A stretch of DNA of 64,000 nt from Escherichia coli (GTDB lineage: Bacteria; Pseudomonadota; Gammaproteobacteria; Enterobacterales; Enterobacteriaceae). The position numbers and the translations under genes are program-made. The notes under the pieces are model-generated. The model saw nothing but the letters and a program-made list of their open reading frames with translations. It searched no databases and was not told the origin of the DNA. Of the stretch, positions 16,104-37,779 are shown piece by piece (the stretch's first letter is position 1; each line of letters opens with the position of its first letter). The stretch lies in the NCBI RefSeq assembly GCF_048403405.1, contig NZ_CP183129.1; one strand, written 5' to 3'.

Positions 16104-16137
16104 AACGTGTCCTTACATTCCTTAAATCAATAACAGG

Positions 16138-24333: not shown

Positions 24334-24386
24334 CGGCGGCAGAGCAGTCACGGAGTAAAACTGATACCGCCAAACGTCACCAGAAA
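24334..24386 (-). ncRNA. dicF: DicF small regulatory RNA (antisense inhibitor of ftsZ mRNA)
   Basis: Minus strand reads ...UUUCUGGUGACGUUUGGCGGUAUCAGUUUUACUCCGUGACUGCUCUGCCGCCG followed by a U tract, matching my recollection of the 53-nt DicF sequence except at the last two bases. Confidence 0.8.
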
Positions 24387-24663
24387 ATTGATAACAGAGG
24401 GCGTTGCAGCGGGGTTGTCACTTAAGCGTATGGTCAACCTGACAACTCGGTGTCCTCAACGGGGAAGGAATAACCCCGCCATACTTACCGCCGCGCCATT
24501 TTGCGGGTTGCCACAACCGGAAGCGCACGGTCGAATTAAATTTAACGACACCGTACAGTGAGACGAACTTCGCCGTGCGCTTTCGTGTTGTGTGCCTGCT
24601 TTTAACCACGTCAGGCGAGGTGGTATCCTTAAAATCACCACAGTTTTAAGGATTCATTAAGCA

Positions 24664-24984
24664 ATGTCGCAACCACCAATAAATCCGCTTAAGAACATGA
24701 AAATTGATTACTGGTATAAAGCGCTTACAGTTGTTGGCGCTGCGTTGTTTGTCTTTAATGGAACGTCTTTTTTTGACAGATATCCCGTTGTTCCATTGGG
24801 TTTTTTGTCCTCCGGCATCTTTTTTATTGGTTTGGGGGAGTGGATTAATCACCCTCTCAAAGTGAGATTTATTGGTCCTGGAGTTTGGACTCGTGGATAT
24901 AATCGTTCTTCGTGCGCACTCGGTATCATCTTCGACATACTTGGTTGTTTCCTGATTGTTACAGGAGTCGTCAAGTTCTTCTGA
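24664..24984 (+). CDS. hypothetical small membrane protein (3 predicted TM helices)
   Basis: ATG preceded by AAGGA at -8; hydrophobic segments YKALTVVGAALFVF, GFLSSGIFFIGLGEWI, ALGIIFDILGCFLIVTGVV. Overlaps a long minus-strand ORF, so the assignment is ambiguous. Confidence 0.35.
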   Translation: MSQPPINPLKNMKIDYWYKALTVVGAALFVFNGTSFFDRYPVVPLGFLSSGIFFIGLGEWINHPLKVRFIGPGVWTRGYNRSSCALGIIFDILGCFLIVTGVVKFF

Positions 24985-24989
24985 TGTAA

Positions 24990-25221
24990 AACCGCAAATG
25001 GGGCACGTAACGGGAATTTTGAAAAGCGTTTCTCCGGGTTCCAGAACAAAATTTTCTGCGGTCTGATTTTGCTTCTCATATTTGTGCTCCGCGTCATTGT
25101 GAGAGCACATTCTTATTCTGAGTGCCTGTTTAAACTCACTGAAGCTGAGAGCTTCTTCGCCTTCGGCAAGGCCTTCGAAGTATTCTTCGTAAGCCTTTTC
25201 CATGATTGTGTCGAAATCCAT
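24990..25221 (-). CDS. hypothetical acidic early protein with CxxC motif (ydfB/ydfC position); 3' boundary uncertain
   Basis: N-terminal part of minus ORF 24646..25263: MDFDTIMEKAYEEYFEGLAEGEE...TCPICGF looks protein-like; the remainder of the ORF is antisense to the plus-strand membrane ORF and looks spurious. Confidence 0.3.
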
Positions 25222-25222
25222 A

Positions 25223-25378
25223 TCACTCACCTGAGTTTCTTTCCAGCCAGCGACGGGCACCATTTTCGGTTTTAAACGTTTTGCTTTTGGTATACGTCAT
25301 CGCGGTGAACGTGCCGTCCTGGTTGGGGAACACGCCACATACCAGAGATTCGCTGTTGCCAAGATCGATAGTATCCAT
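25223..25378 (-). CDS. hypothetical small early protein (ydfA-like, 51 aa)
   Basis: Internal Met of ORF 25223..25432: MDTIDLGNSESLVCGVFPNQDGTFTAMTYTKSKTFKTENGARRWLERNSGE; first gene downstream of dicA, as ydfA is in Qin. Confidence 0.4.
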   Translation of the reverse strand: MDTIDLGNSESLVCGVFPNQDGTFTAMTYTKSKTFKTENGARRWLERNSGE

Positions 25379-25491
25379 GCTGACCTCATTTCCCCTTAAC
25401 GCCGGGGTCGCGGAACTGTTTGCTGAGAACACCGTGCGGTGTCTTGATGGAAAGTAATTTAGAATAACCTAACATGAGAGGCAAGTGTTTT

Positions 25492-25511
25492 TTGTTAGAT
25501 TGATCTAACAA
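25492..25511. promoter_or_regulatory. candidate operator (OL-like) - near-perfect palindrome TTGTTAGATTGATCTAACAA
   Basis: 8-bp inverted arms TTGTTAGA/TCTAACAA just downstream of dicA; the TTAGA...TCTAA half-site recurs in the dicA-dicC intergenic region. Confidence 0.5.
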
Positions 25512-25546
25512 AAAGAGTGGGCGCAACTAATCACTTGAAAAGAATG

Positions 25547-25954
25547 TTATTTTATTGATTTATTTTTACGCGCTTTAAGCATTTCTTCGAAGAGTTTGTT
25601 GAAGTTTTCTACTCTTGCGCGCATTTCAGACAGCAAGGCTTCCTGCTCGGAAGATGGAAGAGCATCGAATAATTCGATCAATTCTTTGTGGTTGGGAGTT
25701 AGCTCTGTTTCCACATGAAGTTCTTGTGCAGGCACTGGTGCCTTGTCTTCGTCACCAAACATTAGCCATGTAGGTGAGCACTTCAGAGCATCCGCTAAAG
25801 CAAACAATCGTTTTCCGACTGGCTGGGTTTCGTCTCTTTCCCATTGTGAAATTGTGACGTGAGCAACTCCAGCGAGGCGCGCAGCTTCTCGTTGTGTTAA
25901 GCGTAATTCTTTTCGTCGCGCCAGAACTCGCTGGCCTAGGGTTCTTGTATCCAT
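25547..25954 (-). CDS. dicA: immunity repressor, HTH_XRE family (DicA-like)
   Basis: 135 aa; HTH LTQREAARLAGVAHVTISQWERDETQP; divergent from a Cro-like gene. Confidence 0.75.
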   Translation of the reverse strand: MDTRTLGQRVLARRKELRLTQREAARLAGVAHVTISQWERDETQPVGKRLFALADALKCSPTWLMFGDEDKAPVPAQELHVETELTPNHKELIELFDALPSSEQEALLSEMRARVENFNKLFEEMLKARKNKSIK

Positions 25955-25955
25955 A

Positions 25956-26025
25956 GTTAGGTAATTCTAATTTTTCTTGACTTAGGTATCCCGCGCACAA
26001 TAATGTTAGAAAAGTCTAACAAGAG
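25956..26025. promoter_or_regulatory. divergent promoter/operator region between dicA and dicC (OR-like)
   Basis: Inverted repeats TTAGGTAATTCTAA (25956-25969) and TGTTAGAAAAGTCTAACA (26004-26021) plus a TTGACT -35-like hexamer between the divergent repressor genes. Confidence 0.5.
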
Positions 26026-26034
26026 GGGGCTTTG

Positions 26035-26262
26035 ATGCTTAAAGTTGACGCAATTACTTTTTTTGGCAGCAAAACAAAGCTTGCCAATGCCGCAGGAGTG
26101 AGACTGGCAAGTGTTGCTGCTTGGGGGATACTGGTTCCTGAAGGTCGCGCGATGCGTCTACAGGAGGCATCTGGCGGGGAGCTTCAGTATGATCCCAAAG
26201 TTTATGACGAATATCGTAAGACGAAGCGGGCGGGGCGGTTGAACAATGAAAATCACTCCTGA
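26035..26262 (+). CDS. dicC: Cro-like small HTH regulator (DicC-like)
   Basis: About 76 aa, HTH KTKLANAAGVRLASVAAWG; good RBS (AGAGGGGGC) before the ATG. Confidence 0.7.
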   Translation: MLKVDAITFFGSKTKLANAAGVRLASVAAWGILVPEGRAMRLQEASGGELQYDPKVYDEYRKTKRAGRLNNENHS

Positions 26263-28688: not shown

Positions 28689-29714
28689 ATGCACATTTTA
28701 TCTGTTTCAAAAAAGGAAGTTGGAAGAGCTGGGGATAGATTAGTTTCTCAGTTTGGTACAGGTGAAAAATATAAAGAGGAAGATGTACAAATTCTTCATG
28801 AGTGGAGGATGTTGCATTTATATCCTTTAAGTAAAATACAATTTTATATGGAAAGAGAGGCTATTTCCTTAAACAAAAATGCGTTACTATCCTCTAGAAT
28901 TAAGAGGATGCCTTCCATTGTTACTAAGCTTTCTAGATTTCCTGATATGAAGTTAAATAAGATGCAGGATCTTGGTGGGTGCCGGGCTATTTTAAATAAT
29001 CTGGATCAAGTGTATGATTTAGTTAATAAAATAAAATCATCTAAATTCTCACATGAACTAGTTAGAATGGATGATTACATGATAGACGTGAAAGATTCTG
29101 GTTATAGAAGCTTTCATATGGTCTATTCATTCCAAAATAAAAAATTTCCATCTTTAAATGGGTTGCGCATTGAAATGCAAATAAGAACAGCTATTCAACA
29201 TAGCTGGGCTACAGCAGTTGAAATGGTTGGTTTGTTTCGAAAGGAATCATTGAAATCTGGTTTTGGTGATGCAAGATGGCTTAGGTTTTTTGAATTGGTA
29301 TCAGAGCTTTTTTATAAACTTGAGTATGAAAAAGAACCATCTGGGAGTTATATAAAAATATCAGAAGAATTAAGTTATTTATCCGTCGAGTTGAATGTTT
29401 TCGATATATTAGCTGCTTACAATGCCGTAGTTAGCCATATTGAGGGTAGCAAAAAATATGATAAAGGACTTTGCATAATTGTTGTTGATACCATAAAGCG
29501 GAATATAAATATAAAGAGCTTCGAAAATCACAATCATGCGAAGGCGGCAGAAGCTTATGTCGAGTCTGAAAAATACTGCGCGGAAAATAAAGGCTGTGAA
29601 GTGGCTATGGTTTCTGTTAGTTCAATTAGTGAATTAAAAAATGCATATCCTGCTTACTTTTTAGATACGAAAACTTTTTTAAATTATCTCAGTAGGTATG
29701 TTTTTATAAAATAA
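28689..29714 (+). CDS. RelA/SpoT-domain nucleotidyltransferase (small-alarmone-synthetase / toxSAS-like) with uncharacterised C-terminal domain
   Basis: 341 aa. All synthetase-fold motifs present in order: RIKRMPSIVTK, DLGGCRAIL, YRSFHMVY, EMQIRTAIQHSWATAVE. C-terminal ~150 aa unrecognised. The gene lies in a conspicuously AT-rich island. Confidence 0.8.
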   Translation: MHILSVSKKEVGRAGDRLVSQFGTGEKYKEEDVQILHEWRMLHLYPLSKIQFYMEREAISLNKNALLSSRIKRMPSIVTKLSRFPDMKLNKMQDLGGCRAILNNLDQVYDLVNKIKSSKFSHELVRMDDYMIDVKDSGYRSFHMVYSFQNKKFPSLNGLRIEMQIRTAIQHSWATAVEMVGLFRKESLKSGFGDARWLRFFELVSELFYKLEYEKEPSGSYIKISEELSYLSVELNVFDILAAYNAVVSHIEGSKKYDKGLCIIVVDTIKRNINIKSFENHNHAKAAEAYVESEKYCAENKGCEVAMVSVSSISELKNAYPAYFLDTKTFLNYLSRYVFIK

Positions 29715-30448
29715 AAAATGTTATCTGGAGTGGTCTGAATTCTACTAACTTAGTTTTTTCAGACCGCTTCTGACCACAATGGCCTGTGAGGTTCTGCTGC
29801 TAGTCAACATAAAATAACAAAGCCGGCAGGTGGTGGTTGTTGTAAAGTTATTCAATGACATTCATGGAGGCTTAAGCGAATTATTTGTCCCTGGTCGGTA
29901 TGGTGGCAACAGCTTGTTGCGAGAATTTGGCTAATTTGGACTGACTTCCGCTCCTTGCTCAAAGCGGACTAGAAGGTTAGCTTGTGTCGGACTTTGCGTA
30001 TTAAAAGAAGTGCTGGTGGTGACTAGTGGTTGAGCCCCATTTCCACAGAAAAAATCAGAGAAACTATACCCAATAGTTGTATTGAATCACTGACGAGACA
30101 GCCTCATATTCATCAGGACTGGTGTACGTCCAATACAGGAGGTTGTGGTGCTGGTTCTCAAATGTGCGCTGGCTATTACGGCTGTAATGGCGATTTATTG
30201 TCTTGCTATTGTTCTTATGGATCGCCTTTCTGACTGATTTCATATTGGCGAGGTAAAGGTAGTTAAGTAGAATGGCTGCGGGTGCTTGAGGCTATCTGCC
30301 TCGGGCATGAACACCAAAGGCAGATAGAGAAAAGCCCCAGTTAACATTACGCGTCCTGCAAGACGCTTAACATTAATCTGAGGCCAATTTCATGCTAGAC
30401 ACATGTAGGTTAGCCTCTTACGTGCCGGAAGGCAAGGAGAAGCAGGCT

Positions 30449-30604
30449 ATGAAGCAGCAAAAGGCGATGTTAATCGCCCTGATCGTCATCTGTTTAACCG
30501 TCATAGTGACGGCACTGGTAACGAGGAAAGACCTCTGCGAGGTACGAATCCGAACCGGCCAGACGGAGGTCGCTGTCTTCACAGCTTACGAACCTGAGGA
30601 GTAA
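30449..30604 (+). CDS. hokD: Hok/Gef-family membrane toxin (type I toxin)
   Basis: 51 aa, MKQQKAMLIALIVICLTVIVTALVTRKDLCEVRIRTGQTEVAVFTAYEPEE; embedded in a longer mok-like upstream ORF (30392..). Confidence 0.85.
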   Translation: MKQQKAMLIALIVICLTVIVTALVTRKDLCEVRIRTGQTEVAVFTAYEPEE

Positions 30605-30820: not shown

Positions 30821-31072
30821 ATGATGAACATCGAAGAACTGCGTAAAATTTTTTGTGAAGATGGCCTCTATGCTGTGTGCGTTGAAAATGGAAATCTTGT
30901 TAGTCATTACCGCATTATGTGTTTGCGAAAGAATGGGGCTGCGTTAATTAATTTTGTGGATGGTCGAGTGACAGACGGATTTATCTTGCGCGAAGGTGAG
31001 TTTGTCACTTCATTACAGGCACTGAAAGAGATCGGAATAAAAGCAGGCTTTTCAGCTTTTGCAGAAGAATAA
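30821..31072 (+). CDS. hypothetical 83-aa protein (position and length of Qin rem)
   Basis: 83-aa ORF with RBS; between hok and the DUF968 gene, as rem is in Qin. Confidence 0.5.
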   Translation: MMNIEELRKIFCEDGLYAVCVENGNLVSHYRIMCLRKNGAALINFVDGRVTDGFILREGEFVTSLQALKEIGIKAGFSAFAEE

Positions 31073-33589: not shown

Positions 33590-33909
33590 TTCCTGTCATT
33601 TTAGGGGACAGAAAAACTCCTTAATACTGATAACCTGGTGCACCATACACACGTTCCTGGAGAAAACTACTTTTTTGATAGGGTTGAAGGTGGCTGGATG
33701 TCTAAAATAAACATTGCTTCATATGTTCAACTATGAGTTAATGACTGCGTCGGTTTGAAGAACAGACGATATACGAAGTAGTTTACTAAAGCAGTTCTCA
33801 TTTCAGGTGTTATTCACTTATTCCTTCTTTGAGTCTCTCCAATTAAGTACGAAGTCGTTTCTGTTATGCAAACCATTTATGCCGAAAGGCTCAAGTTAAG
33901 GAATGTAGA

Positions 33910-34125
33910 ATGTCAAATAAAATGACTGGTTTAGTAAAATGGTTTAACGCTGATAAAGGTTTCGGCTTTATTTCTCCTGTTGATGGTAGTAAAGATGTGT
34001 TTGTGCATTTTTCTGCGATTCAGAATGATAATTATCGAACCTTATTTGAAGGTCAAAAGGTTACCTTCTCTATAGAGAGTGGTGCTAAAGGTCCTGCAGC
34101 AGCAAATGTCATCATTACTGATTAA
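33910..34125 (+). CDS. cspB: cold-shock protein (CspA family)
   Basis: 71 aa, [38 protein letters not shown]... with RNP1/RNP2 motifs; long 5' leader typical of csp genes. Confidence 0.8.
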
Positions 34126-34406
34126 AATTCATCGCTCGTCTGTATACGATAACGAAGAAGGCTGATGCCTGAGTAGAGATACGGACAGAGTAGTGAATAT
34201 TGGATCTCTTTAATAAAAAGTAAGGAGGTCCAATACATGAAACAATGGCCAGCATATTTGGCAAAATCTTAATCAGGAAAAGTATGCTAACCATTGTGGT
34301 GAAGTGCAGGTTTGCTGCATGAATAGTTTCACAGCAGAAGCTAACTGCTGGCATCGCAAAACAAAGTGCGTAAGTGGATGACTCCCACAAAAAGCACCAC
34401 AATCTC

Positions 34407-36999: not shown

Positions 37000-37362
37000 A
37001 TTAATATTAAATCGGATTATTTTTAGCGCTGAATGTGAAATTTAAATAAAAAGGACTCTTCCATGAGTCAAAATCCTTGAAATCTTAAGGGTAAGATAAA
37101 AGGTCATTAGACAGAATGACACGTTTTATTAATAAATAAAGCTATTGTTTCATTCGTGTGTTTTTCTTTACAAAAGTAATCCTTGCTATGGTTGGTTAAT
37201 CATGCGTTAATGGTGTTCTGGTTTGTTACAAAATTATCTGAAGCAGTCATTGTTATAATTTTATTATTTGTACCTCTTGAGATTTCCTTGTTGGTTTTTC
37301 TCTCTGATATTTTTTTTCGGACCATTCTGCCCAAGGGCTAACTTCTTCAAAAGGTAATAATG

Positions 37363-37575
37363 ATGTCTAACAAAATGACTGGTTTAGTGAAATGGTTTAA
37401 CCCTGAAAAAGGTTTTGGTTTCATCACGCCGAAAGATGGTAGCAAAGATGTGTTTGTCCATTTCTCAGCTATTCAGAGCAACGATTTCAAAACGTTAACT
37501 GAGAATCAGGAAGTCGAATTTGGTATTGAGAACGGACCTAAAGGCCCCGCGGCTGTTCATGTTGTGGCACTTTGA
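37363..37575 (+). CDS. cold-shock protein (CspA family; cspI-like position after the lysis cassette)
   Basis: [45 protein letters not shown]... Confidence 0.8.
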
Positions 37576-37779
37576 GGTAGATAATATTACAAACCATATT
37601 CACTTTAGATGCCCGTGTTGCCATGGTTCTCAGTATAGAACATCATCTTTTGATGTTTCTGACAGGAATCCTTTCGGGGCAAAATGTATCTTTTGTAAAT
37701 CAATGATGATTACATTTGATAATATTTCACAATACTTAAATGTTAGCCGTCTATCGTTAGATTTAAGAAAGTGAAAATG

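Follow-up and report, generated by a model that had tools for sequence, protein, structure and literature searches.

In the cryptic Qin (Kim) prophage of Escherichia coli K-12, binding of the repressor DicA to the operator Oc was demonstrated genetically, and it is lost when an A of the CTAAC arm is changed to C. When bound at Oc, DicA acts as a repressor of dicC and as an activator of dicA, and binding of DicA to Oa and Om was absent when each was tested alone (Yun et al. 2012, PMC3441716). The start of the dicC promoter was mapped by 5′ RACE (PMC3441716), and no promoter of dicA has been recognised (PMC3441716, PMC7567609). Furthermore, a dicBp fusion that had been moved away from OR was repressed 22-fold by DicA in trans, bistable behaviour was shown, DicA is reported to lack an Ala-Gly cleavage site, and it is inactivated by the antirepressor Rem (Ragunathan et al. 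2023, PMC10448788). Operators resembling those of PR and PL were described at dicCp and dicBp (Bejar 1988, as cited in PMC10448788), and in regulatory compilations DicA binding at dicBp is still entered as 'location unknown' (PMC7567609). For Qin, the OL/OR-like organisation of dicA has been published before and, going by the paper that cites the early work, has been in the literature since 1988; the locus described here is an allelic form of this known layout and opens no new question.

With phage lambda, the present locus shares the PL-like and PR-like operator clusters that flank the repressor gene, the divergent Cro-like gene, and a weak, probably near-leaderless candidate maintenance promoter that overlaps the third operator position. 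It differs from lambda in carrying two full sites and one half-site per cluster instead of three full sites, in the distance between neighbouring full sites (36 bp in OL and 49 bp in OR, as compared with 23–24 bp), and in the separation of the clusters, which is ~0.5 kb here and 2.4 kb in lambda, where CI octamers mediate looping. With P22 immC it has in common the 5+4+5 inverted-repeat geometry of the operators, although the half-site sequence is different. The P22 operator is TTAAG-N4-CTTAA, and its central 4 bp are read indirectly. The P22 repressor C2 is a protein of 216 aa with a RecA-cleavable LexA-like domain (PMC10448788), and its C-terminal half is unrelated to that of the present repressor, which consists of 50 aa forming two helices. 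Short XRE-type repressors, in contrast, are inactivated by small proteins, as K-12 DicA is by Rem, and are not cleaved (PMC10448788).

The DicA-like and DicC-like proteins and their prophage

The 64-kb window (the whole stretch of E. coli DNA that was analysed) contains a repressor gene and a divergent gene for which the sequence-only reading had used the labels dicA and dicC. These labels hold, as the two proteins score above the NCBIfam cut-offs for DicA (224.7 bits, cut-off 101) and DicC (165.8 bits, cut-off 130), respectively. Their ATGs diverge across an 80-bp intergenic region (25955–26034). The repressor is merely 57% identical to K-12 DicA. In an AF2 model it is composed of a P22 C2-like helix-turn-helix (HTH) N-terminal domain, a flexible linker of 20 aa, and a C-terminal domain of two helices (residues 87–134). 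The ~68 N-terminal residues match the N-terminal domain of P22 C2 (phmmer against 1adr and 2r1j, E=1.3e-18; 45–50% identity), and the modelled domain superposes on the C2-operator complexes 3jxb and 2r1j with a TM score of 0.97 and an rmsd of 0.6 Å (49% identity to 3jxb_C in Foldseek).

A LexA/S24-type C-terminal domain as in lambda CI was not found in the 135 residues, either by Pfam, which returned HTH_3 alone, or in the AF2 model, and in this the repressor differs from CI, as it does in not being subject to RecA cleavage. By sequence, the C-terminal domain had no meaningful match among solved structures (PDB sequence search), and sequence similarity to the C-terminal domains of short XRE-type repressors was not detectable. 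The order HTH, linker and two helices is, however, shared with Bacillus subtilis SinR (antagonist SinI), with Gifsy GfoR/GfhR, which have antirepressors, and with the repressor of the SPbeta-like phi106, whose antagonist is AimX. Full-length Foldseek matches include 1b0n (SinR/SinI), 9sf2 and 9iaq; the matches to SinR, DdrO and the phi106 repressor were set aside since their rmsd exceeds 10 Å and they reflect domain order only. A similarity of the DicA C-terminus to RovA/SlyA has been asserted (PMC3441716), but this was not reproduced by Pfam, by the PDB sequence search or in the Foldseek list.

The rightward operon starts with the DicC-like gene, which is followed by YdaT/CII-like, O-like replication and Ren-like genes (PHROG). 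The leftward operon continues from ydfA through ydfB, dicF, dicB, ydfD, a RecE-like exonuclease gene and xis to int. As the repressor lacks a RecA-cleavable domain, induction most likely proceeds via Rem, which is encoded 5 kb rightward. No LexA boxes were found near rem when the interval 19–40 kb was searched with a strict pattern.

The prophage resembles K-12 Qin in its integration neighbourhood (rspB), in the gene order int-xis-exo-ydfD-dicB-dicF-ydfB-ydfA, dicA, dicC-ydaT-like, in the DicA and DicC subfamilies, and in Rem. It seems, however, to be much more complete than Qin, having int, xis, a full RecE-like exonuclease gene and the genes from terminase to tail. Places that cover 80% or more of the 1.1-kb query region were found in 564 of 5,426 complete genomes. 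The operator and promoter coordinates given in Table 1 are precise positions for a common E. coli prophage type; their practical value is limited.

Table 1. Positions in the window of the operators, promoters and genes discussed in the text
Feature	Position	Strand	Basis
DicF small RNA gene	24334..24385	-	Rfam RF00039, 72.5 bits against a gathering score of 48; in leftward operon
ydfA, first gene of leftward operon	25223..25378	-	RefSeq annotation of the 100%-identical strain PK8566; phrog_751
Predicted leftward early promoter	25456..25484	-	-35 TTGCCT (25484-25479), 17-nt spacer, -10 TAAATT (25461-25456)
Putative operator A (OL1-like), TTAGAATAACCTAA	25459..25472	.	motif match; in spacer of leftward promoter, overlaps its -10
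Putative operator B (OL2-like), TTGTTAGATTGATCTAACAA	25492..25511	.	motif match; ~8 bp upstream of leftward -35
Half-site ACTAA (minus strand TTAGT)	25526..25530	.	read from sequence; 22 bp beyond site B
DicA-like repressor gene, 135 aa	25547..25954	-	NCBIfam DicA NF007257, full length
Putative operator C (Oa-like, OR3 analogue), TTAGGTAATTCTAA	25957..25970	.	motif match; 3 bp from repressor ATG
Candidate weak repressor-gene promoter (PRM analogue)	25964..25992	-	inferred from GGGATA, 17-nt spacer, TAGAAT
Predicted rightward early promoter	25977..26004	+	TTGACT, 16-nt spacer, AATAAT; start predicted ~26011
Half-site TTAGG (Om position)	25982..25986	.	overlaps rightward -35; 25 bp from C, 24 bp from D
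Putative operator D (Oc-like, OR1 analogue), TGTTAGAAAAGTCTAACA	26004..26021	.	motif match; 20-mer 26003-26022
DicC-like gene (Cro analogue)	26035..26262	+	NCBIfam DicC NF007282
rem homologue	30821..31069	+	tblastn, 96% identity across all 83 aa of K-12 Rem

Palindromes on both sides of the repressor gene

The sequence-only reading had listed three palindromes with common half-sites, one downstream of the repressor gene and two between dicA and dicC. All three were found where they had been placed, and they share one core, TTAGR-N4-YCTAA, with a fourth full site that was absent from this list (site A). The core matches the window exactly four times (starts 25459, 25495, 25957 and 26006), and all copies are confined to 561 bp round the repressor gene. 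From 100 dinucleotide-preserving shuffles 0.14 matches would be expected, and none of the shuffles reached four. A scan for GTTAG-N6-CTAAC with at most one mismatch returned the identical four sites and one unrelated match at 16137; it did not detect any additional operators in the rest of the prophage, such as at rem or the late genes. Site A is 36 bp away from the site at 25495 and nearly repeats site C in inverted orientation (18 nt, 89%). The window thus contains two classes of sites, A and C being near-identical inverted copies of each other, and B and D being alike.

In the left cluster, sites A and B bracket the −35 region of the putative leftward promoter TTGCCT-17-TAAATT. This promoter matches 8 of 12 consensus positions, which is below the scanner threshold of 9/12, and it was not called by the scanner. 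The −35/17/−10 frame is, however, present in every immunity type, with TTGACC..TAATCT in K-12, TTGACC..TAAATT in PPompW and TTGACG..TAAATT in mEp460. As judged from its sequence and position, the promoter would be the homologue of K-12 dicBp and the analogue of lambda PL, with a start predicted near 25448. Site A has one full GTTAG arm and one weaker TTTAG arm, and it occupies the position that TGTTAGTCATGGCTAA has in the K-12 dicBp spacer. Site B forms the centre of a perfect 12+2+12 palindrome that spans 25489–25514.

In the right cluster, the rightward promoter was the sole promoter-like match of the scan (10/12). It is predicted to be the homologue of K-12 dicCp, which was mapped in the same place (PMC3441716), and the analogue of lambda PR. 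The 20-mer of site D covers about −8 to +12 of this promoter (TTGACT-16-AATAAT), and the DicA site of K-12 Oc is annotated at −8 to +12 as well, in identical geometry (bioRxiv 10.1101/2025.05.13.653802). Site C contains the −10-like hexamer TAGAAT on the minus strand. Its offset of +2/+3 from the ATG is found also in K-12, PPompW and the Klebsiella phage, and its arms are invariant among the related OR sequences. The candidate PRM-like promoter ends 9 nt ahead of the repressor ATG, and a Shine-Dalgarno sequence is absent; all five immunity types have a −10-like hexamer 6–9 nt before the repressor ATG and lack a Shine-Dalgarno sequence.

Two isolated half-sites accompany the full sites. At the Om position, the second arm is degenerate in the immunity type of the window, CTAAG is invariant in 15 distinct relatives, and PPompW-type loci have a nearly full site, TTAGGTTTCTCTAC. 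At 25526–25530 a second arm is absent, and TTAG is kept in most W-type relatives; this half-site is possibly a faint relic of a third OL operator.

Conservation was assessed in 15 distinct OR and 27 distinct OL related sequences. The GTTAG arm is invariant in all of them and CTAAC is kept in 15/15 OR and 26/27 OL sequences, while all six central positions between the arms vary. The arms of site A are invariant in the 27 OL sequences; the single deviation in CTAAC concerns site B, and at site D the invariant part extends to TTGTTAG. Moreover, repressors with an altered recognition helix are accompanied by different palindromes at the same positions. Specifically, the mEp460 type combines the recognition helix VSGSSISLWES with the palindrome TTGAG-N4-CTCAA, and vB_EcoS-666R9 has GTAC-type sites. 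PPompW, the Klebsiella phage and two further loci (L054 and L055) keep HVTISQWERDETQP together with TTAG/CTAA arms. The HTH of DicC likewise changes together with the operators from one immunity type to another, and the local spacing is constant in all types (OL1-OL2 35–36 bp, Oa-Oc 49–51 bp). Immunity types with such matched changes in helix and operator could be used in specificity studies of P22 C2-like HTH domains.

The sites also correspond one by one to those of K-12 Qin, where two sites have offsets of +3 and +53 relative to the repressor ATG, one lies within the spacer of dicBp and one just upstream of its −35 region. The outer arms TTGTTAG/CTAACAA are common to both, and in K-12 Oa and OL1 each have one weak arm. 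The window and K-12 operators, which may belong to separate immunities, differ consistently only at position 5 of the half-site, where the window has a purine (TTAGA/TTAGG) and K-12 a pyrimidine (TTAGT/TTAGC). In addition, OL2 is a perfect palindrome in the window but degenerate in K-12 (GTTAGCTATAGCATAC). By homology, DicA is predicted to bind K-12 dicBp at TGTTAGTCATGGCTAA, within the spacer, and at GTTAGCTATAGCATAC, which lies upstream of the −35 region. As to exact operator sequences, the searchable literature yielded that of K-12 Oc alone, and no operator of the window type.

The promoter positions, the conservation, the covariation with the recognition helix and the site-for-site homology with K-12 Qin lend good support to the reading of the palindromes as OL/OR-like operators. 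The palindromes thus very probably serve as operators in the bistable DicA/DicC immunity switch of a lambdoid E. coli prophage of the Qin type; actual binding, the site preference of each protein and the promoter starts are what we infer from these data. In this switch, dimers of the DicA-like repressor would bind the inverted repeats of 14–20 bp through their P22 C2-like HTH, contacting the arms (T)GTTAG and CTAAC(A) and leaving the centre non-contacted. Repressor at site D would shut off dicC and the replication genes, and would simultaneously let the weak divergent repressor promoter fire. Site C, in the position of OR3, would serve negative autoregulation or shut-off by the Cro-like DicC. 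Sites A and B together would silence ydfA-dicF-dicB-recE-xis-int, and induction would occur through the Rem antirepressor. By analogy with Oa, whose weak arm they share, sites A and C may be non-autonomous DicA sites.

Division of the sites, looping and other readings

A refinement of the immunity switch, which we consider possible but doubtful, is a division of labour between the two site classes. Sites B and D, which are symmetric with GTTAG in both arms, would then be DicA sites. Sites A and C, which are asymmetric with one TTTAG arm, would be preferred by DicC, and from there DicC would switch off expression of the repressor and lower the activity of the leftward promoter. The two classes are evident in the window, and K-12 Oa and OL1 likewise have one weak arm; in K-12, Oa alone is not bound by DicA (PMC3441716). 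The covariation of the DicC HTH with the immunity type fits such a division, as do a repression of dicA upon DicC overexpression in O157:H7 (as cited in PMC10448788) and the recovery of dicC as a multicopy suppressor of dicA1 (according to the title of Bejar 1986, cited in PMC10448788). However, K-12 dicBp was repressed 22-fold by DicA and deletion of dicC was without effect (PMC10448788). DicA must therefore act at OL, where the site overlapping the promoter core is asymmetric.

The sequence-only reading had further suggested long-range looping control by the repressor, and this part of it, in contrast to the OL/OR-like operators, did not find support. Repressor bound at A and B would interact over ~0.5 kb with repressor bound at C and D, and the loop would tighten repression, autoregulate the repressor promoter, or both. 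The two clusters, with two full sites each, are about 460–550 bp apart and form matched pairs, A and C as inverted near-copies and B and D as similar sites. The weak-armed site A overlaps the PL core and may need the help of another bound dimer. The modelled architecture of HTH, flexible linker and two-helix C-terminus, with SinR among the full-length Foldseek matches, is compatible with bridging, and SinR forms tetramers. DicA is scarce, with about 20–25 copies per cell (PMC7567609), a regime in which looping helps. Derepression of K-12 dicBp amounted to 22-fold for the out-of-locus and 165-fold for the in-locus fusion, values from different experiments that are not directly comparable (PMC10448788). 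Against this, a CI-type S24 domain is absent, with HTH_3 as the only Pfam domain in 135 aa. The OL-OR distances differ between immunity types (511, 511, 549 and 536 bp), which corresponds to fractional turns of 0.67, 0.67, 0.29 and 0.05; the phase is thus not conserved, although this is a weak test at ~500 bp. In K-12, OL alone, away from OR, suffices for repression (PMC10448788). Our literature search found no paper linking DicA to looping. Looping is neither required nor suggested by the data, and we regard it as unlikely. More unlikely still is a particular form of it, in which a short, non-cleavable, antirepressor-controlled repressor present at ~20 copies per cell bridges OL and OR by a SinR-like two-helix hook and fills the weak-armed sites A and C only via the loop. 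If this were true, bridging over ~0.5 kb would represent a minimal lambda-like loop with an unrelated oligomerisation domain.

Site B, which lies 35 nt past the repressor stop codon, could instead act in the repressor transcript, as a terminating or stabilising RNA hairpin. In the repressor-sense RNA the 12+2+12 palindrome folds into 11 bp (−9.6 kcal/mol, z = −6), and in the window type it is the only terminator-like hairpin from the stop codon to the leftward promoter, while the PPompW and mEp460 types have a further one. This reading is nevertheless very improbable. A U-tract is absent after the stem on both strands, and a terminator scan was blank at the sites. The outer stem is broken without compensation in relatives, where CTTCTTG (L038) and TTTCCG (L039) stand opposite CAAAAAA, and these two relatives retain exactly the GTTAG/CTAAC arms that are common to the other three sites. 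Furthermore, the motif is present at three more places at which termination is not to be expected. In agreement with this, a search of 25150–26100 against Rfam with a permissive E-value returned no RNA family.

That the palindromes arose by chance in AT-rich intergenic DNA, or that they are sites for the nucleoid proteins Fis, IHF or H-NS, is hardly credible: the region is indeed AT-rich, and Fis and H-NS/Cnu were reported to influence K-12 dicA/dicB expression (PMC10448788, PMC3441716), but a chance origin is ruled out by the shuffles, the arms are invariant while the centres drift, and the palindrome changes with the repressor recognition helix at fixed positions, which a host factor would not require.

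The prophage and its immunity region

The window is E. coli chromosome, and the 1.1-kb region analysed here is 100% identical in strain PK8566; in 564 of 5,426 complete genomes, at least 80% of it is covered at a single place. The region lies within a lambdoid prophage whose insertion adjoins rspB. The gene order is int, xis, a gene for an 823-aa RecE-like exonuclease, ydfD, dicB, the DicF RNA, ydfB, ydfA and, on the minus strand, the repressor gene; the plus strand then carries Cro-like, YdaT/CII-like, O-like replication and Ren-like genes, in that order. The Qin prophage of K-12 shares this organisation, but the prophage in the window is much more complete.

With K-12 DicA the repressor shares 57% identity. 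Its first 70 residues match the N-terminal domain of P22 C2 (E = 1e-18), and in an AlphaFold model (mean pLDDT 83) this domain superimposes on the C2-operator crystal structure with TM 0.97 and 0.6 A. Beyond it, the model shows a disordered linker (67-86) and C-terminal helices (87-98 and 101-134); Pfam finds HTH_3 only.

Features of the immunity region and other elements of the prophage
Feature	Coordinates	Strand	Sequence or remark
Site A (OL1)	25459-25472		TTAGAATAACCTAA
Site B (OL2)	25492-25511		TTGTTAGATTGATCTAACAA
Site C (Oa)	25957-25970		TTAGGTAATTCTAA
Site D (Oc)	26004-26021		TGTTAGAAAAGTCTAACA
Isolated half-site	25982-25986		TTAGG
Isolated half-site	25526-25530		ACTAA
DicA-like repressor	25547-25954	-	NCBIfam DicA subfamily, 224.7 bits (cut-off 101)
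DicC-like divergent gene	26035-26262	+	NCBIfam DicC, 165.8 bits (cut-off 130)
Rightward promoter	25977-26004	+	TTGACT-16-AATAAT
Leftward promoter-like element	-35 25484-25479; -10 25461-25456	-	TTGCCT, 17-nt spacer, TAAATT; read from sequence
Repressor start	25952-25992	-	ATG without Shine-Dalgarno
Leftward leader	25400-25450	-	hairpin 25429-25442
rem homologue	30821-31069	+	
205-aa ORF	24646-25263	-	
341-aa ORF	28689-29714	+	
sok RNA and two cspA-type leaders	30280-30454, 33749-34141, 37205-37621	+	

Operator sites and promoters

The sequence-only reading had proposed palindromes B, C and D as lambda OL/OR-like operators on both sides of dicA. Each of the three lies exactly where that reading had placed it, but the set was incomplete: with site A, which had been missed, the total is four. 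In the 64-kb window the core they share, TTAGR-N4-YCTAA, is present at four places (25459, 25495, 25957 and 26006) against a chance expectation of 0.14, and none of the dinucleotide-preserving shuffles contained four. A search for GTTAG-N6-CTAAC with one mismatch allowed returned the same sites plus an unrelated match at 16137. Repeat finding showed A and C to be inverted near-copies (18 nt, 89%) and B and D to be alike (19 nt, 84%). Both arms are full in B and D, (T)GTTAG and CTAAC(A), while A and C have a single full arm and a weaker one (TTTAG or ATTAG). A perfect 12+2+12 palindrome has site B as its core.

The rightward promoter was the sole consensus promoter of the region in a promoter scan. 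If transcription starts near 26011, the 20-mer that includes site D covers positions -8 to +12, exactly the geometry of Oc at the mapped dicC promoter of K-12 (PMC3441716; bioRxiv 10.1101/2025.05.13.653802). The TTAGG half-site overlaps the -35 of this promoter, and the start of site C is 3 bp away from the repressor ATG. On the opposite side, the leftward element scores 8/12, under the scanner threshold, and its -35/-10 frame recurs with better hexamers in every related immunity type (in K-12, TTGACC..TAATCT). We infer that this predicted promoter is the homologue of dicBp, the leftward promoter of K-12. Site A takes up the spacer of this element and reaches 3 nt into the -10; 8 bp separate the end of site B from the -35 downstream of it.

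Operator C includes a -10-like TAGAAT that ends 9 nt before the repressor ATG. Starts without a Shine-Dalgarno sequence and with a -10-like hexamer (TAGCAT, TAAGAT or TAGAAT) 6-9 nt before the ATG were found in 5/5 immunity types. On this evidence the repressor mRNA may be near-leaderless, made from a weak promoter of the PRM kind, and this could be the reason that a dicA promoter has gone unrecognised in K-12.

The comparison drew on the K-12 region, 80 IMG/VR loci, eight further loci from E. coli or phages, a Klebsiella phage and a more distant phage of E. coli. For the footprint, 15 different OR and 27 different OL sequences were compared, each from a locus whose repressor carries the recognition-helix segment AHVTISQWERDETQP. 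Throughout this set the GTTAG arm was invariant in all four sites, CTAAC was kept in all OR and 26 of the 27 OL sequences, and every one of the six positions at the centre of B and D varied. This is the pattern left by a dimeric HTH protein in contact with the arms and not with the centre.

Palindromes of different repressor types occupy the same positions, and their sequence varies with the recognition helix. Helix AHVTISQWERDETQP (window, PPompW, L054 and L055) goes with TTAG/CTAA arms and a purine at position 5, helix ISHVSVSQWERGDSEP (K-12 Qin) with the same outer arms and a pyrimidine at position 5 in all sites, helix SHVTISQWERDETQP (Klebsiella phage, L011) with TTAG/TTAA-type arms (Oc, CCTTAGGAAAACCTAAGG), and helix VSGSSISLWESDHTAP (mEp460) with TTGAG-N4-CTCAA; vB_EcoS-666R9, with a repressor 27-30% identical and an unrelated helix, has GTAC-type repeats. 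The DicC helix-turn-helix varies in parallel with the repressor type. Local spacing is conserved in 4/4 types measured (OL1-OL2, 35-36 bp; Oa-Oc, 49-51 bp).

A probable four-site repressor switch

In K-12, Yun et al. demonstrated genetically that DicA binds Oc (TTGTTAGTCATAACTAACAA), repressing dicC and activating dicA; binding is lost when an A in the CTAAC arm is changed to C, and the sequence-predicted Om and Oa were unbound by DicA when tested alone (PMC3441716). Ragunathan et al., citing Bejar 1988, described three lambda PR/PL-like operators in each of the dicA-dicC and dicA-dicBp intergenic regions; deletion of dicA derepressed an out-of-locus dicBp fusion 22-fold, the antirepressor Rem induced an in-locus fusion 165-fold, bistability depended on DicC, and DicA is without a RecA-cleavage site (PMC10448788). 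In Reg-Seq, DicA is listed at ~20-25 copies per cell and its site at dicB carries the entry 'location unknown' (PMC7567609). None of the window's operator sequences was found in the searchable literature.

Promoter placement, arm conservation, covariation and the K-12 Qin match bore out the operator and OL/OR-like reading: the layout is the known DicA/DicC switch architecture, here in an allelic immunity variant. The best explanation, and a very probable one, is a four-site repressor switch, for which we infer the actual binding, the preferences of the sites and the start points. Repressor dimers would occupy all four inverted repeats. Occupation of D would block the rightward promoter and allow the weak divergent repressor promoter to fire, directly or via less polymerase competition, with C at the repressor start as the OR3 analogue. 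A and B would silence the leftward ydfA-dicF-dicB-exo-xis-int operon, and induction would probably proceed via Rem, encoded in the same prophage. As a refinement, the weak-armed A and C might be preferentially DicC sites, a possibility we consider rather doubtful.

Looping between OL and OR by the repressor, also proposed from sequence, appears unlikely. The matched pairs (A with C, B with D), the position of a weak-armed site in the PL core, the scarcity of the repressor in the cell and a domain architecture resembling that of the tetrameric SinR argue weakly for it, but the repressor has no lambda CI-type oligomerisation domain. Moreover, helical phase is not conserved among four immunity types, whose OL-OR distances are 511, 511, 549 and 536 bp, and K-12 OL away from OR is enough for repression (PMC10448788). 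Our literature search found no paper linking DicA to looping, and the evidence is mostly against it. Chance is rejected on the shuffles, and host-factor sites on the invariant arms and the variation of the palindrome with the recognition helix. A terminator or RNA element is rejected because L038 and L039 disrupt, with no compensatory changes, the T5/A5 extension on the outside of site B.

PPompW-type and mEp460-type loci (L004, L003) carry an extra ~25-40 bp terminator-like hairpin-plus-T-run between the repressor stop codon and OL2, which accounts for the differing OL-OR distances. The window type (compare 25512-25546) and the K-12 type are without it, so that in the window repressor transcripts may enter the leftward promoter region unless bound repressor stops them.

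Rem and other prophage elements

Rem shares 96% identity with its K-12 counterpart, against only 57% between the repressors. When immunity types are compared, the repressor is best conserved in CSPTWLxFGDEDK and in its C-terminal helices (ALPxSEQ..RARVENFNxLFEELLKARK). Conservation of Rem and of these helices despite diverged repressors fits an action of Rem on the C-terminal part of the repressor, rather than on its DNA-binding helix. A search around rem gave no LexA box.

The leader of the leftward transcript contains a hairpin (ACACCG-CA-CGGTGT, -7.2 kcal/mol), followed by a block, GTTCTCAGCAAACAGTTCCGC, that is near-identical in all E. coli immunity types although the adjacent upstream operators differ; the Klebsiella phage has a variant, TCACCGCACAGTGA. 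The element, which has no Rfam match, is possibly a processing, antitermination or protein-binding site.

The first 48 aa of the 205-aa ORF are YdfB-like (phrog_2061), while the long ORF matches phrog_35040 end to end; for its counterpart in the identical strain, RefSeq has only a truncated ydfB pseudogene. Just past the replication and Ren-like genes, the 341-aa ORF has a RelA/SpoT-like nucleotidyltransferase region, and its match in PADLOC is the candidate defence family PDC-S33 (E = 5e-119). Since PK8566 has an AIPR-family protein and IS2 in the same slot, this position looks like a variable defence-gene hotspot. As in K-12 Qin, the prophage also has the antitoxin RNA sok of a hok/sok module and two thermoregulator leaders of the cspA type.
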